From contig JBEKCB010000025.1 of NCBI GenBank assembly GCA_050015075.1, forward strand, positions 1-64,000: a stretch of DNA of 64,000 nt, given 5' to 3'. Each line of letters opens with the position of its first letter. Within the stretch, counting starts at the first letter, position 1. The DNA comes from Candidatus Brocadiia bacterium (lineage in GTDB: Bacteria > Planctomycetota > Brocadiia > CAIUPP01). The notes beneath the pieces are model-generated. The model searched no databases and had not been told where the DNA came from. It saw only the letters and a program-made list of their open reading frames with translations. Of the stretch, positions 295 to 16,075 are shown in pieces. Position numbers and translations under genes: made by a program.

Positions 295-795
295 TCAGGC
301 TATGAACTCAATGCCGCCGCTCTGCGCCGGCGCTGATTGCGCCGTCGCGTTCTGGTTGCCGGCGGCAAGGATTTGCTGAAGCCACGTCGTGGGATTGCTC
401 GCGGCCGTCACGGTGGCGCCCGTTGGCGCTGTGCTGCTGTTGACCGTCCCGCCGGCGCCCGCACCGTGATGAAGATGATATTGTCCTTGGGCCTTCTGAG
501 ACATCATCAGCTTGACGGCGGTCCCAAATTGGTTCAGCGTGAGCCCGTTGCCTGTGGTGTTCAACTGCTGATAGAGCTGGTCCGCGGCGGCCGTCGTCGA
601 GGACGAAGGCGCTGAATTCGAGTTCGCCCCCATGAACTGGTTATAGAAGTTCTCGAACTCGGTCTTGGAAATCGTGCCGCTGCCGTTCGTGTCCGCGGAT
701 TGGAACATCTGCTGTATCAGCATTTGCTGCATCGCTGCGAAGTTGGCTTGATACGTCCCCGAAGTCCCCTGCGTCGCCGATATGGCCTCTACCAC
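295..795 (-). CDS. EF-hand domain protein with Q/S/T/A-rich low-complexity regions
   Basis: ADTNGSGTISKTEF EF-hand loop; GGAGG RBS before GTG start. Confidence 0.75.
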   Translation of the reverse strand: MVEAISATQGTSGTYQANFAAMQQMLIQQMFQSADTNGSGTISKTEFENFYNQFMGANSNSAPSSSTTAAADQLYQQLNTTGNGLTLNQFGTAVKLMMSQKAQGQYHLHHGAGAGGTVNSSTAPTGATVTAASNPTTWLQQILAAGNQNATAQSAPAQSGGIEFIA

Positions 796-969: not shown

Positions 970-2310
970 TTAACTAGCGGCTGGAGGCGTACTTATGTCC
1001 GGCGCGGGACAGATTCTGAGCAGCACTTCTCGCGGCAGCGTCGCCGCCAGGACCAGCACCTCGCACACGAGCCGGCGCATCAGCATGCAGCGGCCGGCGT
1101 GCGGCTGGGCCACGGCGCCGCAGAACTCCAGGCTTTCGCTCCGGCACGCGCCACCGCAGACGTGCCGCGCCCAGCACAGGCTGCATTCCTTCCTCGAGCA
1201 GAACCGGTTATCGAGCCACTGCCCGCGCAGCACCTCGTCAATCACCACCTGCGGCCAGGCGATGCCGATGTGCGAGTTCTGCTGCTTGTGGCAAGCGTAG
1301 ATCAGCCCGGTCGGCCCGACGCTGTAATACCCGCGCCCCGCGCCGCATTCGCTCGGCCGGAACTCCTGCCACAGGATGCGCCGGAGCGTCTTCTCGAGGT
1401 ACTGCCAGCGCGGCGGGGCGCCCGACCGCGCGCGCGCGCCGAACCAGTTGCACGCGCTGCGGATTTCGGCGTCGAGCGTATGTCCGTATGCGGCGCCGGC
1501 GACTGGTTCGAGCGCGACGCCGGCGGCGAGTCCCTGATCGCACAGTTCGTTGAGCGCGCCGAGCCGCGCGAGGACGTCCGCCGGCATTCCACTCCAGGTC
1601 CCGCGCAGGACGATCCGTCCGGAGCATCCGGCGCGATGGAGCCGGCTCAGCCCGCGCCGCATCGCCGCGTAACTGCCAGTGCCGCGCGCCTCGTCGTGCA
1701 GTCTGGGCGTCCCGTCGCAACTGACGATGATCGAGAACCCATGCTTGGCCAGGAACCGCGCCACGATCGGCGTCACCAGCGTCGCGTTCGTGGTGACGTG
1801 GAACACGGCGCGGCGTTTATCCATCTCGGCGAGTCGCTGCGCCATTTCAGTAATCGTCGAGAGCATCCCGAAGTGCATCAGCGGCTCGCCGCCGAAAAAC
1901 CCGATCCGCAGGTCGCGGCCGTCGCCAGGGAACATTCTCAGCGCGGCGGAGGCGATGTCGCGGGTCATCACCGGCGGCTCGGCGTCATCCTTGGCAATCC
2001 AGCAGTATTTGCACCGCAGGTTGCACTGATCGGAGAGATGGAGCGTGAGCTGCCGGCAGGACACATCCGGGCTGAGATCGAACTTCGGCCGCCGCTTCGA
2101 GAACAGCAGCCCCGCAGCAAAGCCCTCTGGGACCGCACGCTGAAGGGCCAGCGCCTGGTGCTGCGCCTTCGAGATCTCGACCGCGACCAGCGTGTTCGCG
2201 TCGAACGCGATGACGCTGTCCTCGCCCACCGTGACGTAATGCACGTCCGGCGCGCAAAGCTCCGTCGCGCCGCGTGGCCGCACCTGCAGATTGAGAATGT
2301 GCGGCGTCAT
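970..2310 (-). CDS. Radical SAM/SPASM protein, ranthipeptide (SCIFF/CteB)-maturase-like
   Basis: CNLRCKYC, FFGGEPL, TTNATL and SPASM motifs CGAG...IYACH...CSLCWARHVCGGAC; short N-terminal RRE-like beta segment; ATGA overlap with the upstream gene places the start at 2310. Confidence 0.85.
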   Translation of the reverse strand: MTPHILNLQVRPRGATELCAPDVHYVTVGEDSVIAFDANTLVAVEISKAQHQALALQRAVPEGFAAGLLFSKRRPKFDLSPDVSCRQLTLHLSDQCNLRCKYCWIAKDDAEPPVMTRDIASAALRMFPGDGRDLRIGFFGGEPLMHFGMLSTITEMAQRLAEMDKRRAVFHVTTNATLVTPIVARFLAKHGFSIIVSCDGTPRLHDEARGTGSYAAMRRGLSRLHRAGCSGRIVLRGTWSGMPADVLARLGALNELCDQGLAAGVALEPVAGAAYGHTLDAEIRSACNWFGARARSGAPPRWQYLEKTLRRILWQEFRPSECGAGRGYYSVGPTGLIYACHKQQNSHIGIAWPQVVIDEVLRGQWLDNRFCSRKECSLCWARHVCGGACRSESLEFCGAVAQPHAGRCMLMRRLVCEVLVLAATLPREVLLRICPAPDISTPPAAS

Positions 2311-3095
2311 GCCGTCCTCATCCTTCCCATACACTCCCATTCCTCCCACGTCCGTTTCGGATCGTACTCGACCACGTTCCACGGCTGGACCATCCACGGC
2401 TGCGGCTTGAAAGTGTAGCGCGCGCGCCAGGCGGCCGGCGTGGCGACGTACAGATGCCGCTTCGGCCAGGGCGAGACGATGCCGCGCCCGACGTAGTCCT
2501 CGCCGGGATAGTTGAACCCGCGCTTCGCGTCGAACTTCATTCCCGGCCGCCAGACCGCGAGCGTGACCTGCGGCCTGTGATACTTCGCATGGATCGAGGC
2601 GTCGCGGATGACGTGATCGCCGTCGCCGACGCAGACGAGCACCGGGAACTCCACACAGAGCGCGGGCTTTTTCACCGCAGAGGCGCGGAGGTCGCTGAGA
2701 ACGGCGGCTTTTGCATTATCAGGAACGCCGTCCTCTGCGTTCTCCGCGCCTCCGCGGTCCATCAAAGCAATGATCTCCTCGATGTTCGGCGGCAGCAGCT
2801 CGTCGGCGTCGGGAAAGAGCACCATCTCCGGCCGCGCCTTGTCCATCAGCGCGAACAGCCGCGCGTGCAGCTCGTGCCCGACCGCGATCGCGTTGGCGGC
2901 GTTGTAGGGAATATCCACGCGGGCGACCTCTGCGAGTTTCGGACAGAGCTGGACGTTGCACATCACTTCCCGCGGCGGTTCGCCGTTGACGAGAATGAAC
3001 AGCGCATCCACGTGCCGCGCCAGGTCGGAGATGATCTGCTCCGCAAACTGCGCCTGCACGCCCTGGTGAATCGTCATCGCGCCGGCGAGTCTCAT
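2307..3095 (-). CDS. Putative GT-A fold glycosyltransferase
   Basis: VLFPDADE DxD motif; operon context; contains an in-frame palindromic insert at about 2673-2758. Confidence 0.55.
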   Translation of the reverse strand: MRLAGAMTIHQGVQAQFAEQIISDLARHVDALFILVNGEPPREVMCNVQLCPKLAEVARVDIPYNAANAIAVGHELHARLFALMDKARPEMVLFPDADELLPPNIEEIIALMDRGGAENAEDGVPDNAKAAVLSDLRASAVKKPALCVEFPVLVCVGDGDHVIRDASIHAKYHRPQVTLAVWRPGMKFDAKRGFNYPGEDYVGRGIVSPWPKRHLYVATPAAWRARYTFKPQPWMVQPWNVVEYDPKRTWEEWECMGRMRTA

Positions 3096-3201: not shown

Positions 3202-4089
3202 TCAGTCGTTTCCGTCACAGTAGCGCGCGAGCAGTTGATGCAGTTCCAGCGCCTCGTACTCGCTTAATCCGGACCGGCAGTGCGCGAGCAGATCACGGTA
3301 GCGCGGGCGGATGTCGGCCGGCGTCAGCGGCGTCTTGCCGTCGCCCGGATCGGTCTGTAGCTTTCGCCACGCCGCGTCGCGCTGCGCCAGCGTCGCATCC
3401 CAGGTCTCGCGCGGCGAGGAGCCCAGCGGCGCGCTCGCATGCGTGAAGTCGCCGCGCCAGCTATAAATGTAACTCGCGCGCGCACCGACCTCCGTCGTCG
3501 CCAGCCCGAACTCACCGAGCGCGTCGAGCAGCTTCCGGTGTTCGTTGCCGCTGGCAGTTCCATAACCATGGTGCTTCACGAAGCCGCGCGCGAGAATCAT
3601 TGAGGCTTCGTAATTGTTCACGTTCAGTTTGTACTCGCCGGTTGCCGTGAAGTGAATCCACGATCGCGCCGGCTTCCAGCCGAAAGGAATGGTGGAATGC
3701 ACGTCAATCCGATCGTAGCCCTTAGCGAGATCCTCGCCCCTCCTTGCTGCGGCTAACTGCTGCACTGCCTGCGAAAGATGCCACGGCAACCAGGCGTCGT
3801 CATCATCCCACGTGTGCACGAACTCGAACTCGTCGCCGACCTTCCCGAGAAGCCGGTTTCGCGGGATGCCCGGCTCGTCGCTCGGCTCGTTGAAGACCGT
3901 CACATCAGGCAGCTCGCAGCGAAGCGGCACGGGATGATTGTTGAGGATGAACAGCCGCTTCGCCGGATAATCCTGCGCCAGGAAAAACGCCAGGCATTCC
4001 CGCATCCGCTGGAAGCGGCCGTACGTGCAGGTCAGGCACGCGACCAGAGGAAGTGCAGACTGCGGACTGCGGACTGCGGGATCGGTCAT
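3202..4089 (-). CDS. Glycosyltransferase family 2
   Basis: VACLTCTYGR...FLAQDYP...RN...TWDDDDAWLPWHL; ATGA overlap places the start at 4089. Confidence 0.85.
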   Translation of the reverse strand: MTDPAVRSPQSALPLVACLTCTYGRFQRMRECLAFFLAQDYPAKRLFILNNHPVPLRCELPDVTVFNEPSDEPGIPRNRLLGKVGDEFEFVHTWDDDDAWLPWHLSQAVQQLAAARRGEDLAKGYDRIDVHSTIPFGWKPARSWIHFTATGEYKLNVNNYEASMILARGFVKHHGYGTASGNEHRKLLDALGEFGLATTEVGARASYIYSWRGDFTHASAPLGSSPRETWDATLAQRDAAWRKLQTDPGDGKTPLTPADIRPRYRDLLAHCRSGLSEYEALELHQLLARYCDGND

Positions 4090-6101
4090 GGCTTCTCCAT
4101 CCTCCATTTCGCCGCGACGGCGGGATCGTGCGTGTGCTCGTAGGTCAGCGCCGGATCGGTCGGCGTCCACCAATTGGCTTTGCCCTCGAAGCTCTGTCGG
4201 CACGGCAGCGGCAGCCAGAGCTTCGTGAGGCCGAGGCGCTCGATCTTCGCCGTCCAGATGCGCTCGAGGACCGCGCCGGCGCCGAGCGGCGCGACCTCGG
4301 AATCCTCCGGCCAGGTGCGCGCGAGGAAATCCGTCCGCGCGGCGAAGACCTTCGTGACCGTGCATTTGTTGTCGCAGATTCCCGTGACCAGCGCCGCTCC
4401 TTGAGCGGAGGACATCGCGCGCCGCACCATCTCCTGCGCCCAACCCGGACGCGGATGGAACACGTCCGCGCCGATCTTCACGACCCATTCAAATCCACCG
4501 CCGCGGGCCTGCGCAGTGGCGGCGCGGACGGCGCGCCTCTCGCCGACCGGCAGTCCGGGATTGGCGCCGGTTTCGATGACGTTGATGCCGGAGACTTCAG
4601 GCCAGCCGCGAATCGGGCTCGCATCGCCGACGACGCAGAGCGCGATCTCGTCCGCTCCGGAGGCGCGCGCCGATTCCAGGCAGCGGTCGAGAATCTGCCG
4701 CTTCTCCTCCAGCGTCGCCGCGTTGGAGCTCGTGCCGTCATCGGCCGAAATCGTAATCGCCAGAAGAATCTTCTTTCCCTGGTTCAGCGTCTTGTCCTCC
4801 GCGCCCTGGACGCGCGTCTCGCGGTCGGCAGCGATCCGGCGATCCAGCTCGGCGAGCAGTTCGTCGGAGTTCAGCTTGAACCGGCTTTGAGCGTCGGCGC
4901 GGTAGCGGTTAAATTCGTCGGTCTCAACCTGCGCGAGGACGTGCTCGGGGATCGCGCCGTGCGGCCCCTGTCCTGCCGCCAGCCGCGCGCGGTAATCCTC
5001 CCAGTGCGCGTCGTCCAGCACCAGCCGCCACGCGGCCGCGTAGCCGAGCCACGTCCCGTTCTCCATCGTCGTGCCGAACGGCACGCTCACGCCGGTCTTC
5101 GAACCGCGGAAGAGATGCCAGAGCGCGACGCCGTCATGGAACAGGATCGGCACCTGGTGCGCCGCGGCCAGGAGCGCGACGGCGAGTTCCTGCGCGCCGT
5201 GGAAATTCGGCAGCGCCGGCCAGCCGCCGAACCGGTCGAGGACCGTCCTCGGGATCGCGTAGAACGCGCCCATCATCAGCGAGGTCGGCCAGAGCTCGAG
5301 CTTCGGCAGGTCCGGCCGCCGCTTCATCCAGCGTCCGCCGAGCATTCCCTTCTCCGGCACCAGGCACGCGCCGGCGCGCCCGCACGTGAACATGCAGCCG
5401 CCGTACACAATCGCCTGGCGCTCCAGCGCCGCCGCGGCCAGCGTGCGCAGCTTGTGCGGCCGGTCCAGCATCTCCTTGAACTCCGGCCTGACCGGCCCGA
5501 TTTCGGGATACCGCGTCGCGAACCAGCACGCCGTCTCCCAGTCGAGCGCGTTGTGCGCGTCGAGGAAGATCACCACGTCGCCGCTCGCGCGCAGCGCGCC
5601 GAGCCGCCGCGATCGCGGACCGCCGATCCGCGTCGGATTGCGGATGGCCGAGACCGGCTCCGGGACGGTCGAGCCGTCGTCCACCACAATGATCTCGGCG
5701 TCCGGACAATCGTGCTTGACGCTGGCGACGGTCGCGACGAGGTTCTCGCGCTCGTTGAGGCTGGAGATCACAACGGAAATAGACGATGGACGAGAGACGA
5801 TGGACGATTGCACGGCAGCCGATGGCATCTGCGCCGCCTTCATCTCGACCAGCATCTTCTCCTTGCACGGCGCGCAGTTCGTCAGATCCTTCCGGCCTTC
5901 GAAAATGTCCGCGCCGGCCCATTTCTTTTTCGGGCAGTTCGAGTCCGGGCCGCCCATGAACGCGTGGTCCATCACCAGCCACTTCGCGGAGTCCGTCCCC
6001 GGCGCGGCGCAGAGCTTGCGGTGGATTCCCGTCGCCGGGTTCATGCTCTGCTGGTGCTCGAACTCGCATCGGACGCAGATTTGTGCTCGGCTTGGGTTCA
6101 T
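4086..6101 (-). CDS. Multidomain glycosyltransferase: Cys-rich N-terminus, GT2/GT27 (ppGalNAc-T)-like domain, second GT-like domain
   Basis: ISVVISSLNE, IIVVDDGS, RRLGALRASGDVVIFLDAH (DxH), MGAFYAIPR..LDRFGGW, WHLFR; start at 6101 just after the tail-tip gene stop. Confidence 0.8.
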   Translation of the reverse strand: MNPSRAQICVRCEFEHQQSMNPATGIHRKLCAAPGTDSAKWLVMDHAFMGGPDSNCPKKKWAGADIFEGRKDLTNCAPCKEKMLVEMKAAQMPSAAVQSSIVSRPSSISVVISSLNERENLVATVASVKHDCPDAEIIVVDDGSTVPEPVSAIRNPTRIGGPRSRRLGALRASGDVVIFLDAHNALDWETACWFATRYPEIGPVRPEFKEMLDRPHKLRTLAAAALERQAIVYGGCMFTCGRAGACLVPEKGMLGGRWMKRRPDLPKLELWPTSLMMGAFYAIPRTVLDRFGGWPALPNFHGAQELAVALLAAAHQVPILFHDGVALWHLFRGSKTGVSVPFGTTMENGTWLGYAAAWRLVLDDAHWEDYRARLAAGQGPHGAIPEHVLAQVETDEFNRYRADAQSRFKLNSDELLAELDRRIAADRETRVQGAEDKTLNQGKKILLAITISADDGTSSNAATLEEKRQILDRCLESARASGADEIALCVVGDASPIRGWPEVSGINVIETGANPGLPVGERRAVRAATAQARGGGFEWVVKIGADVFHPRPGWAQEMVRRAMSSAQGAALVTGICDNKCTVTKVFAARTDFLARTWPEDSEVAPLGAGAVLERIWTAKIERLGLTKLWLPLPCRQSFEGKANWWTPTDPALTYEHTHDPAVAAKWRMEKP

Positions 6102-6103
6102 GT

Positions 6104-9082
6104 TCAACTCGGGGTTAGCGTGTAGGTGATTCCGTGGACTTCGATCACGAACGTTGACATGCAATCGTACTTGCCGTCGGTGGTTGCCGGAGCGTAGTTG
6201 CCTTCCCAGCCGGCGCCGCCAATCGGAGTTATGCCGAGCCGGACTTCCCAAAGATCGAAGATGACACCTGCGGTGAGGCCATTGCTGAGTTGCGCGGCAA
6301 AGGTGCAGTGGCCTTCGGTCAAAATCAGTGTTCCGCTCGATCCATCCGATCCCGTCAGACGAATACTTGCCGGAGTCGCGCCCGAGCAGGCGTCACAGCC
6401 GACCGGCGAGGTCGGCGGCGAGGTCGGAGCCGACGTGTGCGCCGCGGTATGAGCTGCCGTAGGCGCGGACGTGTGCCCGGCGGTCGGCTCGGAGGTCGCC
6501 CCCGACGTGTGCGCTTCGGTCGGCTCGGACGTGTGCGCTTCGGTCGGCCCCGACGTGTGTTCTTCGGTCGGCGCGCTCGTCGGCGGCGAAGTCGGCGCGC
6601 CGGTGTAGGGCGATGTCGGCGCTGGAGTGCCCGATGGAGTCGTCGCCGGCGGCGTACCCTCCGCCGTCGTCTCCAGAGGCGTCGTGTCGTTCGGTGTCGT
6701 CTCGCCCGGCGTCGTCCCCGGCTCGCTGCCCGGCTCCGTCGAGCCGCGAAGCACGATCCCGTTCAGCTCGAATTGCGTCGTGCAGAAAAGCTCGCAGCCG
6801 ATCTGGCAGCTTGTCTCGCAGGCCCAGCAGCCGCCCGGCGGCATCGCCTCGGCGAGCGTGTCGCAGACGCCGGACGGGAAATACGGGATCTCGGCGCTGA
6901 GCTTGATTCCCGGCACCGCGCGGTTCGATCCGCCGCCGAGCGTGTGCTCGATGCCCACCACGCGCGCGACCTGGCCCGCTCCGAACCAGCCGGCCAGGTC
7001 GAGGTCGAACAGGTCGTACGGTTCCGCGTCGAGCCGCCGCAGCGAGTCCACCAGCGCGATCTGCTGCCAGATGTACTGCCAGCGGTTCAGCCAGAAGTTC
7101 GCCACGCCCTGCACCGGCGCCAGGCTCGCGTACGCCCAGAAGTCAATCGTCTTGGCGATGCGGCCGCCGACGAACTCCTCCGCCGCCGGCGACCGAAGAA
7201 TTATCGTCCGCCGCACCGCGTTGTCAATGTACGAGCCGGTGATCTCCGTGACGATCTGGTTCCATTCCCGGCGCGCGATGTCCAGCGAGCCGAGATAACG
7301 ATCGGCTCCGGACGTCGGCGGCGTGCCGGTTGGGACCATGACGTTGGTCAGGTAGATCAACTGCGCCTGGCCGGCGAAGAAGACCTCGGCGCAACGCGCC
7401 TGGAACGCGAGATCGGCGCAGAGTTCGAGTCCCTTCTTCTGCTCGGTCAGCGCGAAGCCCATCAGCAGCGCCGCCGTCGCCGTCTTCGCCGCGGCGAAAG
7501 AATCGGCGTCAATGTTGTCGCTCGTCATGCCCATCCAGCGCGTGTGGATCGCCTGGATGATGTCGGAGGGATTCTGCAAGAGCGTCCCGGTCCCGTCGCC
7601 GACGCTCTCCACGCCGTCGAGCGTGATCCACAGGTCGTCGTTCTTCATCCGGATATCGAGCTGCGACGGCGGCAGGCTGAACGTGATGCTCGTCACCGCG
7701 CGGCCCGGGCACGTGGCCGTGTCGTTGTAGTTGATCGTGTAGAGCGAAGGATCGAGCGCGAAGTACCATTCCGTCGGCGTCGTCCAGATCTGTCCGTTGA
7801 TCCACAGGCTCAGCGGATGGCCATAGCCCTCGACGCTGTAAACCTTCTTTGAAGGCGCGTCATTGACCACGTAAGTGTAGTTCGAACGCGCGACGTAGAC
7901 CTTCGATCCGCACGGATGTCCGGCCACGTTGCTGCCGATCTGGTACGTCGCGCCGATCGGCAGCGTGTACGTATGGCCGGCGTTCGTGAACGCGTCGCCG
8001 ATCCACGTCGTCTGCGTCGGATCGAGCGGGTTGACGTAGGCGAATCCGCTCAGCATGCCGAAGACGATGGTGTGCGTGGCCGAGTCGTAGCTCTGGATGA
8101 TCTTCCGCTGCACCGTGCCGTCCGGCGACGTGAAGAGAATGTAGTAGCCGACGTAGGTGCCGTCCGGACCGGTGAGCGCGCTGTCCACCAGGTGCTGGCA
8201 ATCCACGCCGAGCGCGGTGACCGTGCCGGTGTAGAGCGGCGCGCCGCGCTCGGTGATGCTGAAGAAGTTGCCGTTGAACTGCCCGTTGATCCGCTCGCCG
8301 CCGATCCAGATCTCCATCGGCGTGAGCTGCGGGAAATACTCCGCGTCGTTCACGTACAGGCCCATGTCGAAGTAGTTGCAGACCCGCGCCAGCTCGGTCA
8401 CCGGCCCGAAATCCACCGCCACCGCGCGCGCACGCATGACGTGGCCGAAGACCAGCGGGATCAGCTTGTTCTCGTCAGTCTGGACCACGTTCGGGCAGTC
8501 CAGCCGGTCGGCGAAATTTCCGACCGTGCGGTTGAAATAGGTCGAGATGTCCGTGATGTCCAGCAGCACCGCGTGGTCCCGCTCGCTCCACGTGCACGGC
8601 GCGTTGATGATGCCGACGTGGAGCTTGACCAGGTCGCTCTCGGCGTTGCCCCGGAACTGCTGATAGATTGCCACCCACGCGCGCTGCGGCTCGATGCTCT
8701 GGAAATAATTGAAGAGGACCTTGTCCTCGTCGCGCAGCTTCACCGTGCAGTCGCCGACGACGTTGACCGCCTTGTCCGCCTTGATCCCGAGCCGCACGAC
8801 GCCCCACTCGAGCACGCGCCCCTGAGCGTTGTCCCAGGACGCCCCATCGCCGGAGCCGAAATCCTCTTGCGCGTACCACTTCACCCCGACCGGCGCGGCC
8901 GGAGGCAGCGTCGGTCCGCCGCTCGTCGTCGCTCCGGTCTCGGAGACCGTCGGCTCGCCCGGCGCAATGAGAATCGGCGCCGTGCTGCCGCCGGCCGCAG
9001 GCCAGGAAATCTGCAGCAGGCAATACGGCTTGCTGCTCTCGGAGTCCGCCGCGGCGATTGTCGAAGATGTTAGTGTGCGCAT
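6104..9082 (-). CDS. Phage tail-tip/baseplate hub-like protein with a C-terminal six-Cys motif and mucin-like stalk
   Basis: Follows the Dit-like gene; IPLVFG and NPSDII motifs typical of tail-tip proteins; TSxPT repeats. Confidence 0.7.
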   Translation of the reverse strand: MRTLTSSTIAAADSESSKPYCLLQISWPAAGGSTAPILIAPGEPTVSETGATTSGGPTLPPAAPVGVKWYAQEDFGSGDGASWDNAQGRVLEWGVVRLGIKADKAVNVVGDCTVKLRDEDKVLFNYFQSIEPQRAWVAIYQQFRGNAESDLVKLHVGIINAPCTWSERDHAVLLDITDISTYFNRTVGNFADRLDCPNVVQTDENKLIPLVFGHVMRARAVAVDFGPVTELARVCNYFDMGLYVNDAEYFPQLTPMEIWIGGERINGQFNGNFFSITERGAPLYTGTVTALGVDCQHLVDSALTGPDGTYVGYYILFTSPDGTVQRKIIQSYDSATHTIVFGMLSGFAYVNPLDPTQTTWIGDAFTNAGHTYTLPIGATYQIGSNVAGHPCGSKVYVARSNYTYVVNDAPSKKVYSVEGYGHPLSLWINGQIWTTPTEWYFALDPSLYTINYNDTATCPGRAVTSITFSLPPSQLDIRMKNDDLWITLDGVESVGDGTGTLLQNPSDIIQAIHTRWMGMTSDNIDADSFAAAKTATAALLMGFALTEQKKGLELCADLAFQARCAEVFFAGQAQLIYLTNVMVPTGTPPTSGADRYLGSLDIARREWNQIVTEITGSYIDNAVRRTIILRSPAAEEFVGGRIAKTIDFWAYASLAPVQGVANFWLNRWQYIWQQIALVDSLRRLDAEPYDLFDLDLAGWFGAGQVARVVGIEHTLGGGSNRAVPGIKLSAEIPYFPSGVCDTLAEAMPPGGCWACETSCQIGCELFCTTQFELNGIVLRGSTEPGSEPGTTPGETTPNDTTPLETTAEGTPPATTPSGTPAPTSPYTGAPTSPPTSAPTEEHTSGPTEAHTSEPTEAHTSGATSEPTAGHTSAPTAAHTAAHTSAPTSPPTSPVGCDACSGATPASIRLTGSDGSSGTLILTEGHCTFAAQLSNGLTAGVIFDLWEVRLGITPIGGAGWEGNYAPATTDGKYDCMSTFVIEVHGITYTLTPS

Positions 9083-9088
9083 TTATCC

Positions 9089-9403
9089 TCACCCCGCCAC
9101 AACGGTTGGAGCAGGACTCTGACCATTGCAGCCAATGAACGTCCACGATCCCACGATGTTGCTCAGAGCGGTTCCGGTCGTAGAGGCCTCATAGAGCGGC
9201 TTCTGATCCGTCAATGTGTTGTCAATCACCCACCTTCCTGACGTGGAATTGTAGTGAAGGTAGATGCCGTTGCTGTTCATCCAGTAGTTCTGGCCATCGT
9301 GAGTCCCGGACTGCCGAGCATAGTTGCCATCTACGTTGGCATTAGCTGATCCGGCGCCTGAAGCGGTGTAGGCGAAGAAGGTTCTGTTGTATCCCACGAT
9401 CAT
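9089..9403 (-). CDS. Small beta-rich tail-associated protein
   Basis: ATGA-coupled to the fibre gene; visibly lower GC than neighbours. Confidence 0.6.
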   Translation of the reverse strand: MIVGYNRTFFAYTASGAGSANANVDGNYARQSGTHDGQNYWMNSNGIYLHYNSTSGRWVIDNTLTDQKPLYEASTTGTALSNIVGSWTFIGCNGQSPAPTVVAG

Positions 9404-11481
9404 GCTCTGACCACCTCCAGGGAAACCGTAACCCTCGTCACCGTGGTCGCGCTGTTCACCTTGAAGGCGATGATGTTGCCGGCGGTGAGGCTCGTGCTCC
9501 AACCGGTCAGCGTCGAGTCCTGGCTCTTCTGCGCGCTCGAGAGCGTCGGCAGGTCGGAGGCCGCGATGGAGGACGTGGTCGGGAATCCCGAATACGTGGA
9601 CGTCTGGACGTCCACGACGATGCTCCCCGACTGGTCCGCCAGCAGCGTCACGCGCTGAATCGTGCAATTGAACGGGATTTCCAGGAATCCCTTCACGCCC
9701 GTCGTGATCGCCGAGCCGCCGCCGTCAATCACGAACTCGATCGCATCCGGAAGGGCCAGCACGTCGTCGCCGCCGGTCAGGTGCGTGCTCTCGTGCGCGG
9801 TCGGCGTCCTCGCGTTGGTCAGCCTCGAATCGGACGATGCCACGATTCCGCCGTGTGCCGTCGTCGTCAAGCCGGCATGCGTGTTCAGGTTGCCCTGCAC
9901 CGTCGCCGCCGCGCCGGCCGCATCGCTCGCGGCTTCAGCCGCGCTTTCCGCAGTCGAGATCGCCGAGCCAAGCGCCGTCCGGACCGCCTTCTCGCTCGGC
10001 ACGTTGCTGTCGCTTCCCGGCGAGCCGACAGTAATGACGAGCGCGCTCGCCGCAATGCTCGCCGCCTCGGCCGCAGACTGCGCCGATGCCGCCGCGCCCG
10101 CCGCGTCGAAGGCGCTGCTGGCCTGGAACGCCGCGGTCCCGAGCGCGCCGCCGTCCTCGAGGGCCTTGCCGGTCGCGTCGGCGAACAGTACGACGTGCCC
10201 GGCCATTGACGAGTCCGGTCCGGTGACATCGCCCGATCCCAAGCCGGAAACGGAGTCCGCGATCGCCGTCCGCACCGCCTTCTCGCTCGGCACGTTGCTG
10301 TCGCTTCCCGGCGAGCCGACAGTAGTAACCAAGTCGGCAATCGGAATGCTCGCCGCCTCGGCCGCAGACTGCGCCGCAGCCGCCGCACCGGAGGCGTCCG
10401 CCCCGACATCGCTCGGACCCAGCGTCACCGCGCCGACTTTGCCGCAGACGCTCGAGACGACCTGCTGGTTGTCTATCCGGTTCCAGGACGCGCCGTTATA
10501 AGTCAACCAGTCGCCCGCGCCGTACGTCGTGCCGCTGATCGTGCCCGCGGCCGAGCAGACCCAATACTGGCCTTTCGCCGGCGATGCCGGATACGAGCCG
10601 CCGGAGCAGTCGAAAGTTCCCTGATAATCCAGCGCGCCGACAATGGCCGCCGGGAGCTGGCTCGTCGGCACCTTGCCGCTCGCATCCAGCGTGGCAACGC
10701 CGCTGTCCGCGCCGGCAGATGTCAGCGGGATGCTCGCCGCCTCCGCCGCGGCCTGGGCCGCAGCCGCCGCGCCGGCGACATCCGCGCCGATGCTCGCCGG
10801 ACTGATCGGATCGGAACCGGTGGATGCGTGCGTCGAGGCGTGCGCGGTCGGCGTCCGGGCGTTGGTGAGCCTCGAATCCGTCGCAGCCACGATCCCGCCG
10901 TGCGCCGTCGTCGTCAGGTCCGCGTGCGCGAGCAGATCGTCTTCAAGCGCGTACTCCGGCGGCGAGGTCGGCGGCGAGGTCGGGCCTGAAGTGCCCGCCT
11001 CGGTCGGCGAACTCGTCGCCCTGCCCGTCGCCGACGAAGTGGAGGCCGATCCGCTGGAAAGGTGCAGCTTGATCGTCAGTTCGTAGAATCCGCCGGAGCG
11101 CACGGTGGTCGCCACCGTGTCGCCGCCGGTGACGAAGCTGCCGGTGGAAGCCGCCTCGTCGGCGACGGTGACCGGAGCGAGCGTCGCGCTGAGGAAATAC
11201 GCCGCCCATGCGACGTTTCGCTCGTCGGTGAACGTGAACTCGTTCAGCGTGCCCTGCGCCTGGTTCTTGAAGAAACTCTGAACGTCGTTCAATTCGCTCA
11301 GGCGCAGGTTCGACCACTTCAACTCGCGCCGCGTGTCCGTCGCGTCCGCCAGCGCGAAGCGGTAGAACCCGCCGCTCGCCTTCGGCTGCACGACCTGGTG
11401 CGGATCGAGATCGAGCTGGTCGTTCAGGTCCGGGTTCTGGACCGTCGCCGTCACGCCGCCGAGAGAAAAGGAAACGCTCAT
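9400..11481 (-). CDS. Distal tail (Dit)-like domain fused to a tail-fibre-like protein
   Basis: N-terminal ...VQSFFKNQAQGTLNEFTFTD; internal duplications (TTTAHGGIVA..DSRLTNARTPTAH x2, GSPGSDSNVPSEKAVRTA x2); GVATLDASGKVP fibre motif. Confidence 0.65.
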   Translation of the reverse strand: MSVSFSLGGVTATVQNPDLNDQLDLDPHQVVQPKASGGFYRFALADATDTRRELKWSNLRLSELNDVQSFFKNQAQGTLNEFTFTDERNVAWAAYFLSATLAPVTVADEAASTGSFVTGGDTVATTVRSGGFYELTIKLHLSSGSASTSSATGRATSSPTEAGTSGPTSPPTSPPEYALEDDLLAHADLTTTAHGGIVAATDSRLTNARTPTAHASTHASTGSDPISPASIGADVAGAAAAAQAAAEAASIPLTSAGADSGVATLDASGKVPTSQLPAAIVGALDYQGTFDCSGGSYPASPAKGQYWVCSAAGTISGTTYGAGDWLTYNGASWNRIDNQQVVSSVCGKVGAVTLGPSDVGADASGAAAAAQSAAEAASIPIADLVTTVGSPGSDSNVPSEKAVRTAIADSVSGLGSGDVTGPDSSMAGHVVLFADATGKALEDGGALGTAAFQASSAFDAAGAAASAQSAAEAASIAASALVITVGSPGSDSNVPSEKAVRTALGSAISTAESAAEAASDAAGAAATVQGNLNTHAGLTTTAHGGIVASSDSRLTNARTPTAHESTHLTGGDDVLALPDAIEFVIDGGGSAITTGVKGFLEIPFNCTIQRVTLLADQSGSIVVDVQTSTYSGFPTTSSIAASDLPTLSSAQKSQDSTLTGWSTSLTAGNIIAFKVNSATTVTRVTVSLEVVRA

Positions 11482-11614
11482 TTAATTATTCCTGTAACCT
11501 CCGATGGACGCCGATGAATGCAGATAAGGCAAACGACCGAGTAATAATCCGTATCTGCGTTCATCACGCGCGCAGTACACTGCGCGCTCTGGGTCCCTCG
11601 GCGGTTAAAAAATA

Positions 11615-12166
11615 TTAAGCTGCCGTGGTCTGTTCCGAACTCGGCTCGTTCGTCGGGTTCGCCGAAGTCCGCTTGGCGACGGTCGGGCGCTCCTCGAAGT
11701 CCTTGAAGGCGACCGCCAGGATGTCGGCGTCGGCTTTTTCGGAGAACGTTTCGTTCAGTTCGTAGCACTTCTCGAAGACGATATCCTCGGCCTGCTCGCC
11801 GGTGATCGGCGAGACGCACGTGAACCGGATGCGGACGGTCCGCACGCCGCCGTCGTTGCTGGTCGAAAGCCAGGAACTCGCCGCGCCGACGCCGAACAGC
11901 GCCTCGTGCGGCGTGACCGGATAGCCCGTCGCGCTGAGGAATTCCTTGAACTTCACCTGGAACTTGCCGCTGCACGGCCTGGCCTTGCCGGCCCGGAGCG
12001 AGCTGAGATCCGTCCGGTCCATGATGGCGACGGACTCGCGCTGGGCCACGTCGAAGCACATGTCGCCTTCGTCCACGACGAGCTGGACGGCGTTGGCCGG
12101 GCTCGACCCGTCCTCGATGGTGATGATCCCATCGGCCATGTTCTTTACCACCGTCTGCTTCGCCAC
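11615..12166 (-). CDS. Putative tail tube protein
   Basis: Size (~183 aa), position, beta-rich sequence; GGAGGTGA RBS before GTG at 12166; ends ...SSEQTTAA. Confidence 0.55.
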   Translation of the reverse strand: MAKQTVVKNMADGIITIEDGSSPANAVQLVVDEGDMCFDVAQRESVAIMDRTDLSSLRAGKARPCSGKFQVKFKEFLSATGYPVTPHEALFGVGAASSWLSTSNDGGVRTVRIRFTCVSPITGEQAEDIVFEKCYELNETFSEKADADILAVAFKDFEERPTVAKRTSANPTNEPSSEQTTAA

Positions 12167-12233
12167 AACTCTCACCTCCAAAAAACGTTTTCACCACTAC
12201 GACCCGACGCGCGCGACGTACGGATTTACCAAC

Positions 12234-12545
12234 CTAGTCTTGCGTCGTGGGTTCGTCAGTCGTGGAGCCGTTCGTCGTGTCCGTAGTGGTGAGTTCCGGC
12301 GTCGTCGCGGCGGCCGGCGTGTTGGCCGAGACGGAGGCGACCAGCGCGGCCTTGTTCGTCGCCATCTGGTTCGCCAGCGACTGGATCTGGGCCTGCAGCG
12401 CCGCGACCGACTGGGCCGGCTGAGAGGCGACCGTCTGGAGCTGCGCGGTGAGCTGGTCGAGGAGCGCTTCGGCGCTCGCATCCACCGTCGTCTCGGCCGC
12501 CACAGCCTGAATGATCGGGGTAAGATCAATGCTGACCGTTGCCAT
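12234..12545 (-). CDS. Small coiled-coil phage protein with a Thr-rich tail
   Basis: AAGGAG RBS; Ala/Gln helix, then TTPELTTTDTTNGSTTDEPTTQD. Confidence 0.65.
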   Translation of the reverse strand: MATVSIDLTPIIQAVAAETTVDASAEALLDQLTAQLQTVASQPAQSVAALQAQIQSLANQMATNKAALVASVSANTPAAATTPELTTTDTTNGSTTDEPTTQD

Positions 12546-12717
12546 AGCACCAACTCCTTCCATCAAAAAGAGGATCCGTTCCACCTTCCTTCGGTCACTG
12601 CGCTTGAACACGGTACGCTCCGCGACGATGGACTATGGACGATAGACCACGCGCGGCAATCGTCCATCGTCTATCGTCCATCGTCTGCCTCCATCGTTTC
12701 TCGTCCATCGTCGCCGC

Positions 12718-12933
12718 TCACTTCGGCGCCGCCGGCGGCGAAGCGGGCGGCACAGCCGCCTTCGGCTTGAACAGCGCGATCAGCCCGACCAGCTTCGCCC
12801 AGATCCACGAGATGATGGCGCCGATCTTCGCCAGGACGTGGTCCGCGAGCACCTGGTGCAGCGCGGCGAGGATCCCGAGCACGACGCTGCTCAGCACGCA
12901 GCCGAGCAGGAACGCCACGATCAGTTGCAGCAT
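12718..12933 (-). CDS. Small membrane protein (holin-like)
   Basis: GGAGG RBS before ATG at 12933; two hydrophobic segments in 71 aa. Confidence 0.55.
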   Translation of the reverse strand: MLQLIVAFLLGCVLSSVVLGILAALHQVLADHVLAKIGAIISWIWAKLVGLIALFKPKAAVPPASPPAAPK

Positions 12934-12989
12934 CGTCGGCCTCCATTTCACAGGACGATTGACCATGGACGATGGACGATCGTCAGTGG

Positions 12990-13500
12990 CTAAAACTGCG
13001 CCTTTTGCGTCAGCACCAGCAGCGGCGCTCCGAGCATCAGGCCCAGAAGAATCACGCACACGATCAGGTCCGACCACCAGTTCAGGTCCAGCTTCCCCAG
13101 CAGGACGATAAGGAGCACACCCAAGCATTCGCAGCCGCCAACTGTCAGAAACTTCAGCCAGCCAGGACTCAAACCGAAACTGCACCTGCGTCAGAGACGC
13201 AATGCTTCCTTTCACCTGGTCGCGGAACTGGTCGGTGTCCTGCGAGGACTTCTGGATCGCATTGATGATCGCCGTGTTCTGCTGCGCGAGCGAGAGGACC
13301 TGCGCCTGGACGTCCTTGAGCGTCGAGGCGGTGGTCGAGTCCGGAGCGACCGTCTGCGCCGCCTTCTGCGCCGGCGCGGACGAACAGCCGACGGCCAAGA
13401 TCACCGCAGAGGCGCAGAGGACGCCGAGAGCGGCGAAACGCCTCAAGGCCTGATTGCCAGAACTTTCCGTCTCCGCGTTCTCCGCGTCTCTGCGGTGCAT
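12990..13500 (-). pseudogene. Lipoprotein/coiled-coil/transmembrane protein with an apparent frameshift near 13177
   Basis: Lipobox ILAVGC and coiled coil; removing one T from CAGTTTCGGTTTG joins it to the 2-TM ORF 12990-13172. Confidence 0.5.
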
Positions 13501-13512
13501 CGCCGCCTCCTT

Positions 13513-13989
13513 TCAAGAAATCCTGAACTTGCAGACCATCGTCGTCGTGAACTGCCAGAGTTCGATGTGCTTCTGCAGGGCGATCTTCGGCGCGTAGGAC
13601 GGGTTCGCGTACTCCGCCTCGGCGAACGTCGCCCCGAGGCCGAAATTGTCCGCCTGGAACTGCCGGCTCATGAAGTCCTCGAAGCCTTCGGCGAGGTCCA
13701 CGATACGGCGCGAGTCCTCGCCGGCGGTCGCCATCTCGATCAGGAACGCGGTCCGGCGCTCGAGTACGGCCGCCGGGCCGCGCTTGCACTTCGCCGGCGG
13801 CCAGTGATGCAAGTCCTCCGCCGGCCCCATCGCGAAGACCGGGCAGACCGCTGGCATGATCTCCATGCGCGTCAACACGCCCTGGCCGTTGAACCGGAAC
13901 ATCGTTCCGCCCTTCAGCAGCGCGGACATCGCGGAGTCGGCCTGCAGGCGGCTCCAGACGGCGTTCAAGACATCGGTCGAAAGGCCCAT
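13513..13989 (-). CDS. Tail completion/terminator-like protein
   Basis: AVWSRLQADSAMSALL N-terminus; lies between the gp36-like gene and the tail genes. Confidence 0.55.
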   Translation of the reverse strand: MGLSTDVLNAVWSRLQADSAMSALLKGGTMFRFNGQGVLTRMEIMPAVCPVFAMGPAEDLHHWPPAKCKRGPAAVLERRTAFLIEMATAGEDSRRIVDLAEGFEDFMSRQFQADNFGLGATFAEAEYANPSYAPKIALQKHIELWQFTTTMVCKFRIS

Positions 13990-14030
13990 CAGAATCTCTC
14001 CCAAAGCCGAGTGCGAATCCGGTGCGGCAT

Positions 14031-14456
14031 TCAAAAACCACGAGTCTGGCGGCGCGTGAACTGCCGCCGGCGGCCGGAGGCCTTTGCGCCGTGGAAGCGG
14101 TCGCCGCGGTCGTCGGCCTTCGGCTCGCCGAGCGACGCCTGGCCCTGGCCGACTTGCTCCAGGAACGCCACGTCGCGGTCATAACCGTTCTTCACCTCGT
14201 CGGGCAGCGACTGCCGGCCGAGGTACAGGTAGTACAGCGCCAGGCGGACGGCGATGCTCAGCAGCATCGGCGGCACGGTCGCCAGCGGCAGCGGATACTG
14301 CGGCGAGATCAAGCCGTCAATCAGCGACGACGCCTGGTCGCACGCGGCCTGCAGGACCGTGTTGTTCGGCGAGCCGGTCCCGCCCAGGTCGCTGAGTTGC
14401 GTCAGTTCGGCGGTGGTCTTGACGTTCGCCAAGTCAGTCGGAGCGCAATAGCTCAT
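14031..14456 (-). CDS. Mu gp36-like head-tail connector (DUF1320)
   Basis: MSYC..DL...EL.QL, ASSLIDG...YPLPL..VP..L...A..LALYYLY, Y...FLEQV..G..SLG pattern. Confidence 0.85.
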   Translation of the reverse strand: MSYCAPTDLANVKTTAELTQLSDLGGTGSPNNTVLQAACDQASSLIDGLISPQYPLPLATVPPMLLSIAVRLALYYLYLGRQSLPDEVKNGYDRDVAFLEQVGQGQASLGEPKADDRGDRFHGAKASGRRRQFTRRQTRGF

Positions 14457-14539
14457 CGGTTACTCCATTGCGGATTTCGGAATGCGGACTGCGGAATTCA
14501 ATCCGCAATCCGCACTCCGCACTCTGCACTCTGCACTCG

Positions 14540-15481
14540 TTACGCCGCGGTCGTCGGGGCGCCGGAAGTGCCCTGCGAGCCGTAGGCGAGCCACCACGCG
14601 ATGGCCTTCACTGCGCCGCGGTAATCCATGCCGAAGTCGAAGCGCTTCTGGTAGAAAACGTTCGGGTCGTCGAGCTTCACCATCGGCGTCAGCGCCAGCG
14701 GCCGGCGCACCTGGTTGACCACCGGCTTGATCGGCTTCGAGCAGTCCAGCATCATCCACTGGTTGCCGGTCCACATCGGCATCTTGATCTGGTTCTCTTT
14801 CGGGAACTTCCCGTAGAGCGTCTGGCTGATCTGGCTGGAGTTGGCCAGCGGCACGTTGAAGAGCTGGTCCACGGCCTGCTCCAGCGCCGGCGAGAACAGG
14901 AAGTGCGTCGGCTGGACCAGGAGCACGATGCCGTCCGGTCCGACGAAGGTGCTCATCTGCTTGATGCCCGCGTAGACCGCCGCGGCCGAGAGGTATGCCG
15001 TCGTCAGGTTCGACTGCGGAGCGCCGGCGGCGCCTTTCATCCCCTGCCAGACGTGCGAGCTGGAGAAGAACGGCACGCCGTCGAAACCGACCGACTCGGC
15101 GAAGGCGCCGACGCCGAGTTCGTCCTGCACCTGCAGCCACGGCTCGAGCACGCCGAGCGCGGCCTGCTGCTGGATCGCCAGCGCGTATGCCCCCGTCACG
15201 TCGTCCTCGATGTCCTCGCGCGGCACGCCGATCGTGTGCTCGAAGGTCAGGTTGCGGACGCTCGCCTCGAACGCGGCCAGGTCCTGGATCACGCGGTCCT
15301 TCACCCACTCGCGCATGCGTCCGGTCAGCGCGGCGACCGGGTAGTGCTCGATGCGCGTGGACGACGGCACCGCCGAGGCGATGTCGTCAATCCGGGTCTT
15401 CGTGCGCTCGAGCGTCTGCTGAAAAATGGTGTTGAACGACACCCACAACGCCTCCAGCGTTGCGGCATTGACTACTGCCAT
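14540..15481 (-). CDS. Mu-like major capsid protein (gpT family)
   Basis: VPSST..EHY...MREWV.DR, FEHTIGVPREDIEDD..G.Y, FDGVPFFS..H, W.MLD.SKPIKP, W.LAYGS; AGGAG RBS. Confidence 0.92.
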   Translation of the reverse strand: MAVVNAATLEALWVSFNTIFQQTLERTKTRIDDIASAVPSSTRIEHYPVAALTGRMREWVKDRVIQDLAAFEASVRNLTFEHTIGVPREDIEDDVTGAYALAIQQQAALGVLEPWLQVQDELGVGAFAESVGFDGVPFFSSSHVWQGMKGAAGAPQSNLTTAYLSAAAVYAGIKQMSTFVGPDGIVLLVQPTHFLFSPALEQAVDQLFNVPLANSSQISQTLYGKFPKENQIKMPMWTGNQWMMLDCSKPIKPVVNQVRRPLALTPMVKLDDPNVFYQKRFDFGMDYRGAVKAIAWWLAYGSQGTSGAPTTAA

Positions 15482-15571: not shown

Positions 15572-16024
15572 TTAGGCCGCCGTCGTCGGCGCACTGGTCA
15601 CCGGCAGCGCCGGCTCGACGTACGCGCCGCGCATGTCCACCAGCACTCCGTATCGGTCCACCGACTTGATGCGGCCCGCATACGTGTTCGTGCCGGCGGT
15701 CAGCGTCACGGTGTGATCGTCGGCGAAGTACGCCGGCTGGCCGACGCTCGCCTGCGTCAGCGTCGCGGCCGAATCCCAGTACGCGGCCTCCGGCGTGATG
15801 ATCTCCACGGTCTCAGCGCCGGCCGCGCCGGCGGAATTGTCCACCGTCTCGTCGGCGATGCCGCGGAAATGCCTCACGCCCGGGCCGGCCGGAACCGCAA
15901 AGCCGCCCGAGTTCAGCCCCACCGCGGCGCCGTTGAAGATCTGCGTCGCGGCGGCCACGGGCGCCTCGTCGCGGTGCAGCTCGTCCACGAACTCCGTGTC
16001 CCGATCCGACGTCAAGTTGCTCAT
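15572..16024 (-). CDS. Capsid cement/decoration protein
   Basis: PVAAAT.IF.GA.V...G.AVP, GIADETVDN..GAAG, VGQPAYFADDHTV; lies between protease and capsid. Confidence 0.8.
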   Translation of the reverse strand: MSNLTSDRDTEFVDELHRDEAPVAAATQIFNGAAVGLNSGGFAVPAGPGVRHFRGIADETVDNSAGAAGAETVEIITPEAAYWDSAATLTQASVGQPAYFADDHTVTLTAGTNTYAGRIKSVDRYGVLVDMRGAYVEPALPVTSAPTTAA

Positions 16025-16075
16025 GCGACTGCTCCTAAAAAAGAGACCATTGACCATAGACGACAGACGATGTCC

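Follow-up and report, generated by a model that had tools for sequence, protein, structure and literature searches.

A 64,000-nucleotide stretch of DNA from Candidatus Brocadiia bacterium (contig JBEKCB010000025.1, positions 1 to 64,000; hereafter the window, G000:C25:1-64000 in a 66-contig, 4.64-Mb assembly) carries, directly after the tail genes of a prophage, a gene for a 671-residue protein that is almost certainly a GT-A glycosyltransferase resembling family GT27. Sequence profiles and the predicted fold agree that the nearest solved relatives of its catalytic domain are the eukaryotic GT27 polypeptide N-acetylgalactosamine (GalNAc)-transferases (ppGalNAc-Ts). Because this GT27-like enzyme adjoins tail genes and virion proteins of the same prophage bear threonine-containing tags, we infer that the phage sugar-coats its own particle, the enzyme O-glycosylating the phage's virion proteins, a reading to which we assign a probability of roughly 55%. 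All that is said below on protein acceptors, donor sugar, retained configuration and what the other genes do is putative.

The Catalytic Domain Is Closest in Sequence to ppGalNAc-Ts

The Pfam family PF00535 (Glycos_transf_2) matched the N-terminal half of the catalytic domain only, with 64.2 bits against a cut-off of 23.3, and also matched 34 of the 35 relatives in the family alignment described below. A single-sequence phmmer search of the PDB returned eight matches at E values of 0.044-0.59, all of them ppGalNAc-Ts. When a profile of 16 close homologues of the protein (A1) was used, the 15 best PDB sequences were again ppGalNAc-Ts without exception (E 8.7e-8 to 1.6e-3), and the first match outside GT27 was dolichol-phosphate mannose synthase (DPMS) at E 7.4e-3. 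The broader A2 profile, a 35-sequence domain alignment whose members are 25-42% identical to the window protein, placed GT27 enzymes at all 16 of its best positions, with E values from 3.1e-25 (ppGalNAc-T1) to 1.9e-18. These GT27 matches span profile positions 6-237 of 305, a range that includes the two conserved halves of the catalytic domain. Behind them, as the next family, came an archaeal GT2 mannosyltransferase at E 1.8e-12, and this and every later match were limited to the N-terminal nucleotide-binding half.

Inspection of A2 revealed that His-183, Glu-305 and His-329 (full-length numbering) are invariant and that Asp-181 and the pair Asp-141-Asp-142 are nearly so. Alignment of A2 to GalNAc-T1 paired flDaH with FLDAH, mmGAlYvi...GGw with MAGGLFSI...GTY, wgldEe with WGGENLE and twHeFr with VGHVFR. 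In the HMMER alignment the histidine, phenylalanine and arginine of WHLFR in the window protein are each paired with their counterparts in GHVFR of GalNAc-T1, the histidine falling on residue 257 of the 1xhb chain, which is His344 according to the offset calculated from the DxH position. Asp209, His211 and His344 are given as key residues of mouse GALNT1 in the excerpted text of PMC4202792; the first two make up the metal-binding DxH, and His344 is the third metal ligand.

The initial annotation of this region had proposed GT27-like hallmarks from a set of short motifs. These motifs were found in a single frame, all inside 5090-5790, on the minus strand, which that annotation did not state. 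Its equivalences for DxH and GH[IV]FR were reproduced by HMMER alignment, and its GT27-like assignment of the domain is borne out by the leading place of ppGalNAc-Ts both in the A2 search and in the structural comparison that follows. Among solved structures the domain did not cluster with glycosyltransferases acting on polysaccharides, lipids or DNA.

The Predicted Fold Extends the Resemblance to the Helical C-terminal Part of GT27

An AlphaFold2 model built with a 16-sequence alignment was confident over the catalytic domain, where block values of the predicted local distance difference test (pLDDT) were mostly 80-97 at residues ∼104-430, of moderate confidence over the C-terminal domain, and unconfident over residues 1-103. 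Among the matches listed by Foldseek against the PDB, 31 of 32 were ppGalNAc-Ts, the best at E 4.4e-14. In a comparison with 998 chains by VIA-align, 29 ppGalNAc-T entries were found at Z scores of 27.1-22.6, with 267-311 residues aligned at a root mean square deviation of 3.0-6.4 and 16-22% identity, followed by a step down to B4GALNT1 (Z 18.8) and to bacterial GT2 enzymes (Z ≤18.3). The aligned range extends to residue ∼425-443, so that the C-terminal, helical portion of the catalytic domain of GT27 is covered as well.

The gene proper, 4086-6101 on the minus strand, lies within a longer open frame (4086..6251), and its ATG stands 2 nucleotides past the stop codon of the upstream gene for a 992-residue tail protein; the same N terminus is found in 13 of 16 aligned rows. 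The window subfamily comprises 17 homologues at 40-93% identity. The protein starts with a Cys-rich region of the pattern CxxC...C...C...CxxC, which matched no Pfam family at E ≤1 and was modelled with pLDDT below 50; P0034, P0036 and P0040 carry similar Cys-rich N termini. An insertion of ∼30 residues follows the DxH motif in comparison with stand-alone relatives. No membrane segment was found, the maximum Kyte-Doolittle mean over 19 residues being 1.39 for a segment inside the catalytic domain, and no ricin family was present in the Pfam search of the protein.

When folded alone, the C-terminal domain gave a pLDDT of 95.2 and a top Foldseek match at E 6.7e-8. A VIA search independent of Foldseek yielded a flat list at Z 15.3-12.2, in which glycosyltransferases (hyaluronan synthase, GpgS and WrtF) were mixed with sugar nucleotidyltransferases (GlmU, IspD and CofC-like proteins). 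Asp-106 and His-109 of its motif GADVFHP are invariant. According to the model, the domain has a generic GT-A/nucleotidyltransferase fold and may either be a transferase in its own right or serve to make the donor. P0057 consists of this domain alone, and in P0038 and P0046 it stands in swapped order, N-terminal to a DxH glycosyltransferase domain; such occurrences suggest that the two domains are functionally linked.

The Enzyme Belongs to a Large Family of DxH Proteins

In a profile search of the whole library, 2243 cluster representatives passed E ≤1e-3, with 228 of them reaching ≤1e-10 and 37 reaching ≤1e-30; many of the representatives are stand-alone enzymes of ∼300 residues. Key residues were tallied on the best 148 of the 2243 representatives, with the last listed domain counted in multi-domain proteins: DxH was present in 128 of 133 domain rows covering both positions, and DxH together with the C-terminal histidine in 124 of 131 representatives covering the three key positions. 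The nearest Atlas clusters consist of PF00535 proteins of ∼290-350 residues, mostly from Uroviricota, with PF02709 in some clusters, and for one relative the label gives a Verrucomicrobia metagenome-assembled genome (MAG) as source.

The family is scarce in the host phylum, where it was found at E ≤1e-25 in 2 of 401 genomes, the window's own included. No match for the window domain, P0032 or P0050 was found by tblastn among 50,697 cultured-phage records, and no relative was found among IMG/VR viral contigs via A1, A3 (a poor pattern), the capsid protein, P0034 or P0050. A degenerate MGAFY-N30-GGW pattern gave a sole match in IMG/VR (L004), which was rejected as a chance hit to an unrelated 133-residue open reading frame (ORF). 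Literature searches found no characterized member of the prokaryotic and viral DxH GT-A family.

Virion Proteins Carry Candidate Acceptor Tags and Linkers

A six-frame census of the genome identified only 3 of 20,951 stop-to-stop ORFs of at least 100 residues that end in TTA[A/E]. These are the major capsid protein (...GSQGTSGAPTTAA), a head-module protein matched by phrog_1731 and a 188-residue tail-module protein for which no family was found, and all three lie within 4.5 kb. The related prophage at locus L002 has tags of the same kind (TTGAPTTAA, TTAPTTAA and LELTTAE). A 125-residue ORF at 12234-12611 also has a Thr-rich end (TTPELTTTDTTNGSTTDEPTTQD).

The capsid tag was followed through 20 homologues, of which the partial hits P0189-P0192 (31-68% coverage) and P0197 (45%) were set aside because their C termini are unreliable. 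Each of the 10 close homologues (71-100% identity, coverage of at least 95%) carries a variable, Thr-containing extension after a conserved AWWLAYG, for example APTTAA, PTTGA, TVTTTGA or SETSTGA; GTVGA is shorter, and in one homologue the unit is doubled to APTTAAPTTAA. By contrast, none of the 5 distant homologues (at least 92% coverage, 28-33% identity) has a TT[A/G]A end, and in three the protein finishes directly behind the core. It follows that the tag is an addition specific to the lineage, one that evolves fast yet retains threonines. The tandem duplication occurs in P0185, which ends ...APTTAAPTTAA, and hints at a tag of modular nature. The capsid query found a single distant match, at 30% identity, among 400 further genomes of the phylum.

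Two further proteins contain candidate acceptor sequence in the form of linkers. The 992-residue tail-module protein encoded directly upstream of the glycosyltransferase has nearest Atlas clusters that are all viral, with Phage-tail_3 in 15% of the members of one of them. It is 81% identical to its homologue at L002, residues 1-779 being visibly more conserved than this overall figure. After residue 779 follow a five-Cys cluster (CWACETSCQIGCELFC), a repeat region of ∼115 residues and a divergent C-terminal stretch of ∼95 residues. Its mucin-like linker is rich in Thr, Ser, Pro, Glu and His, with tandem repeats of period 24/48, and both its length and its repeat units vary between the two loci. 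The 693-residue fibre-like protein contains a 45-residue Ser/Thr/Pro linker at 10933-11067. Thr/Ser acceptors in a Pro-rich peptide, as foreseen by the initial annotation, thus have plausible candidates in the context of the gene, and action on them is a proposal that carries the probability given above.

The Gene Lies at the Distal End of a Prophage Structural Module

The first ∼22 kb of the window hold, on the minus strand, a phage structural module in which PHROG and family matches give the order terminase, portal, protease, capsid, adaptor and tail proteins (Table 1). The genes for the fibre-like and the 992-residue proteins are followed by the glycosyltransferase, two conserved ORFs, a radical SAM/SPASM gene and an EF-hand-like ORF. 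Beyond ∼22 kb the genes are cellular-looking and include oxidoreductases, a type II secretion pseudopilin, PEP-CTERM proteins and a BlaR1-type peptidase. The structural module with its flanking cellular-looking genes is therefore a prophage, truncated by the contig start. Its capsid is of the Mu gpT type, PF10124 being detected in capsid homologues. No tape-measure, tube or sheath gene was recognized on the minus strand between the adaptor and fibre-like genes (9400-14500), and a promoter and terminator scan gave counts at or below shuffle means.

Table 1. Coordinates of the glycosyltransferase, its motifs and neighbouring features, in the window unless a locus is named
Feature	Position	Strand	Basis or remark
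Glycosyltransferase gene, 671 residues (N-terminal Cys-rich region, GT27-like domain, second GT-A-fold domain)	4086..6101	-	translation, homologues, gene map
N-terminal Cys-rich region, residues 1-93	5822..6101	-	Cys columns conserved in A1
GT27-like GT-A catalytic domain, residues 95-440	4782..5819	-	PF00535, profile against PDB, Foldseek, VIA-align
GPRSRRLGALRASGDVVIFLDAH, DxH metal motif (D181, H183)	5553..5621	-	aligned with FLDAH/FLDSH of GalNAc-T1/T2
MGAFYAIPR..FGGW..HGAQEL, counterpart of the Gal/GalNAc-T motif (AGGLF..WGGENLE), with E305	5184..5273	-	HMMER alignment to GalNAc-T1
MGAFYAIPRTVLDRFGGW	5220-5273	-	string located in frame
HGAQEL	5184-5201	-	string located in frame
WHLFR, corresponding to GHVFR, with the C-terminal His (H329) and Arg (R332)	5106..5120	-	HMMER alignment to GalNAc-T1
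C-terminal domain, residues 441-671, nucleotide-diphospho-sugar-transferase/nucleotidyltransferase fold	4089..4781	-	model, Foldseek, VIA
Tail-module protein, 992 residues, candidate acceptor, directly upstream of the glycosyltransferase	6104..9082	-	translation
Five-Cys cluster CWACETSCQIGCELFC of the 992-residue protein, conserved, just before the mucin-like linker	6746-6835	-	translation
Mucin-like Thr/Ser/Pro-rich linker, residues ∼778-906, HTSxPTEA-type repeats	6365..6751	-	composition scan
Tail-fibre-like protein, 693 residues	9400..11481	-	PHROG tail/minor tail protein matches
Tail-module protein, 188 residues, end EPSSEQTTAA at 11618-11647	11615..12181	-	translation
Major capsid protein (Mu gpT-like), C-terminal tag SQGTSGAPTTAA at 14543-14578	14540..15481	-	phrog_371
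Head-module virion protein, end PVTSAPTTAA at 15575-15604	15572..16057	-	phrog_1731
Large terminase	19047-20732	-	PHROG matches
Gene 2, 295 residues, weakly GT-A-like, WDDDD motif	3202..4089	-	ATGA overlap with the glycosyltransferase gene
Gene 3, 262 residues, PDADE motif	2307..3095	-	conserved in L002, L006, L007
Radical SAM/SPASM peptide-maturase-like gene	970..2310	-	PF04055, phrog_1802; ATGA overlap with gene 3
EF-hand-like ORF after the radical SAM gene, Ser/Thr/Ala/Gln-rich stretches	295-795	-	EF-hand_5, E 1.8e-7
P0178-type stand-alone DxH member with intact WGGSE	L011 17891-18826	+	genome G270

The assembly breaks 2-4 kb downstream of the glycosyltransferase gene in three cases, namely at the contig start of the window (positions 1-300), at L005 and at L002. 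The break might be the genome end of a transposable phage, the head genes being Mu-like (PF10124), or a repeat.

This setting bears on the idea that the enzyme glycosylates phage DNA, as part of base hypermodification against restriction. DNA-glycosylating phage enzymes are well known (excerpts of PMC12619734, citing Pyle et al. 2024), and we nevertheless consider this explanation very improbable here: no base-hypermodification genes were found among the ORFs examined in 1-22 kb (such genes could lie in the prophage part missing from the contig), the gene sits in a structural operon, and the fold is nearest to glycosyltransferases that act on polypeptides.

Downstream Genes and Their Conservation

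The order tail protein, glycosyltransferase, gene 2, gene 3, radical SAM gene was kept in all four of the other loci fetched (L002, L005, L006 and L007). Across the other loci the glycosyltransferase is 68-100% identical to that of the window (L005, 100%; L006, 73%; L007, 68%). In the species-genome collection the only related locus, at 79% identity, was in an MAG labelled Candidatus Brocadiia bacterium. Gene 2 is conserved in L002, L006 and L007. In L007 only, an extra ORF of 246 residues (4411-5148, plus strand) separates gene 3 from the radical SAM gene, and at 6660-7244 (plus strand) the same locus has a similar EF-hand-like ORF after its radical SAM gene, with the end ...LEFIA.

Gene 2 matched PF00535 at E 0.0074, below the cut-off, and PglI-like proteins at E 0.057-0.13; hhalign of gene 2 to A2 was not significant. 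For gene 3 no significant family, PDB or glycosyltransferase similarity was found.

In NCBIfam the radical SAM gene scored best against the PapB ranthipeptide maturase, with E 1.9e-47 and 162 bits, short of the 340-bit cut-off, and with nif11-type (4.1e-46) and SCIFF (3.1e-37) maturases behind it. This affinity for peptide maturases could be taken to mean that the radical SAM/SPASM enzyme and one or more glycosyltransferases modify a small secreted peptide, glycocin-like or ranthipeptide-like, as in the pathways of ribosomally synthesized and post-translationally modified peptides, with the virion proteins mere bystanders. The A2 profile also gave a weak PDB match (E 0.0089) to SunS, a prophage-encoded peptide glycosyltransferase, and a relative of 1122 residues, P0069, has GT2 domains joined to a radical SAM domain. 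However, every score of the radical SAM gene falls well short of the respective family cut-off, the listed ORFs of the cassette (at least 50-60 residues) include no small Cys-rich precursor, and the obvious Cys cluster lies inside the 992-residue tail protein, where it fits modification of a virion protein. A peptide pathway of this kind therefore appears improbable, and the substrate of the maturase may instead be a virion protein, through the five-Cys cluster of the tail protein.

A Proposed Route to Virion Glycosylation

The proposal that the phage glycosylates its own virion can be put as the following minimal scheme. A soluble, phage-encoded GT-A enzyme of the Mn2+ type, with the DxH and C-terminal histidine typified by GT27, would be expressed with the tail genes, late in infection. 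It would bind a uridine diphosphate (UDP)-sugar via D181-x-H183, H329 and R332 and transfer a first sugar, plausibly an N-acetylhexosamine, to Thr/Ser hydroxyls of virion proteins in the cytoplasm, before or during assembly. One set of candidate acceptors would be the ...TTAA tags of the capsid, head-module and 188-residue tail-module proteins, and a second the Ser/Thr/Pro linkers of the fibre-like protein and the mucin-like linker of the 992-residue protein. The fused C-terminal domain, and perhaps gene 2, would then lengthen the glycan or provide the donor, and the PapB-like radical SAM enzyme might staple the Cys cluster of the tail protein through thioether bonds. Extension of the chain by other glycosyltransferase domains had been part of the initial annotation and is the weaker part of it: the C-terminal domain has a generic GT-A/nucleotidyltransferase fold, gene 2 is marginal and gene 3 has no significant glycosyltransferase similarity.

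A more elaborate version, in which a prokaryotic virus possesses a full cytoplasmic pathway of mucin-type O-glycosylation, seems doubtful. It would combine initiation by a GT27/GT60-clade enzyme on TTAA tags and linker, extension by the second domain and neighbouring genes, and stapling of a Cys knot, and would make the DxH family the reservoir of the eukaryotic initiating enzymes.

Several observations weigh against virion glycosylation as proposed here. The WGGEN motif is degenerate in the window protein, where WGG is not kept and HGAQEL stands instead, and the invariant Glu-305 aligns one position after the glutamate of WGGE in the HMMER alignment; because of this offset its equivalence to that glutamate is tentative. 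The stretch proposed as the counterpart of AGGLF..WGGEN does align as a region, and some relatives, P0178 among them, keep WGGSE. Since the protein also has neither lectin domain nor anchor, it is described as GT27-like rather than as a demonstrated member of GT27. The assignment of genes 2 and 3 as glycosyltransferases was not demonstrable from family, PDB or hhalign comparisons. The synteny of the cassette amounts to conservation rather than independent association, because all of the loci belong to one phage lineage. Phage fibres commonly carry Ser/Thr/Pro linkers without known glycosylation. In addition, the glycosyltransferases of Che8, a mycobacteriophage considered below, are not close relatives: hhalign gave E 1.1e-4 with a probability of 56.6% for gp109, and values that were not significant for gp108 (E 0.0084, 4.8%) and gp110 (E 0.31, 0.2%).

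The one other family member in the host phylum, P0178 of genome G270, points in the same direction. It has the motifs DxH, WGGSE and YHRFK and adjoins a cytidylyltransferase gene, in a neighbourhood that reads as a cellular glycan context, with a putative Kdo-transferase, guessed from sequence, next to it; phages are therefore not the sole carriers of the family, whose acceptors may differ from member to member. On the other side of P0178 at L011 lies a giant gene with kinase, STAND and FGE domains. G270 has 47% G+C, with repeated transposase-like ORFs near the DxH gene, a cellular rather than a prophage setting.

P0178 also lends some weight to a different explanation, in which the cassette serves lysogenic conversion and alters an envelope glycan or surface protein of the host, for example to block superinfection, rather than the virion. 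Temperate phages carry serotype-converting glycosyltransferases (excerpts of PMC12619734), and the cassette occupies the distal end of the structural operon, a frequent site of morons. Yet the enzyme lacks a membrane segment or signal, its translational coupling to a tail gene implies late rather than lysogenic expression, its closest characterized relatives act on polypeptides, and the threonine tags of the virion proteins would be left unexplained. Modification of the host surface is accordingly regarded as unlikely, and glycosylation of the virion is retained as the preferred reading, with a small share of the probability left to explanations of some other kind.

If this reading is correct, portable C-terminal tags (…APTTAA) and a soluble bacterial-type enzyme would be available for making mucin-like glycoproteins in bacteria, Thr-rich virion tags could serve as markers of glycosylated phage particles in metagenomes, and a prokaryotic and viral sister group would exist with which the origin of GT27 and GT60 could be tested.

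Comparison with Known Systems

The likeness to GT27, represented by human GalNAc-T2, mouse GalNAc-T1 and Toxoplasma gondii GalNAc-T3, lies in a GT-A domain matched over ∼270-310 residues at 16-22% identity with the C-terminal helices included, in DxH, the C-terminal His-x-Phe-Arg and an acidic residue in the region of the Gal/GalNAc-T motif, the combination of DxH, C-terminal His and Arg being the one with which GT27 holds Mn2+ and the UDP pyrophosphate, and in candidate acceptors that are rich in Thr, Ser and Pro. Unlike those enzymes, the window protein has no ricin-type lectin domain or signal anchor and does not keep WGGEN, and it adds a Cys-rich N terminus, an insertion after DxH and a fused second GT-A-fold domain. 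It is also prokaryotic-viral and predicted to be cytoplasmic, whereas GT27 enzymes are type II membrane-anchored proteins of the Golgi. The same three additions (Cys-rich N terminus, insertion and fused C-terminal domain) distinguish the window subfamily from the wider, unnamed DxH family, to which only PF00535 applies.

Replacement of DxD by DxH is specific to GT27 and GT60, both of which are polypeptide Ser/Thr O-glycosyltransferases (Taujale et al., excerpts of PMC7185993), and GT60 is present in prokaryotes and protists (excerpts of PMC7185993 and PMC8724618). The window enzyme is like GT60, the polypeptide α-GlcNAc-transferases, in having DxH and no lectin domain. It differs in that the Pfam family PF11397 did not match the window protein at E ≤0.01 and matched only 1 of 35 relatives, at E 0.0081; no solved GT60 structure was among the matches listed.

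The literature covered, outside subscription journals, yielded no account of a GT27-like enzyme, from phage or bacterium, that acts on virion proteins; the term GT27 does occur in several comparative-genomics papers on bacteria. Phage virion glycosylation has so far been documented in mycobacteriophages: Che8, Corndog and Myrna are reported to use their own glycosyltransferases to glycosylate the C termini of capsid and tail-tube proteins, a modification reported to shield the particles from antibodies (Freeman et al. 2023, as cited in excerpts of PMC12363180 and PMC12619734). The capsid and tail-tube proteins of Che8 end ...TGS and ...DGS. Common to Che8 and the window prophage are phage-encoded glycosyltransferases and a short C-terminal tag shared by the capsid and other virion proteins. 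The differences are that the tags are TTAA in the window prophage and GS in Che8, that the Che8 glycosyltransferase genes occupy the right genome end, remote from the structural genes, whereas that of the window is coupled to tail genes, and that the window prophage has in addition a mucin-like linker and a radical SAM gene. The window prophage appears to achieve the same by means of a different enzyme, one whose best-characterized relatives start, in animals, O-glycosylation of the mucin type.

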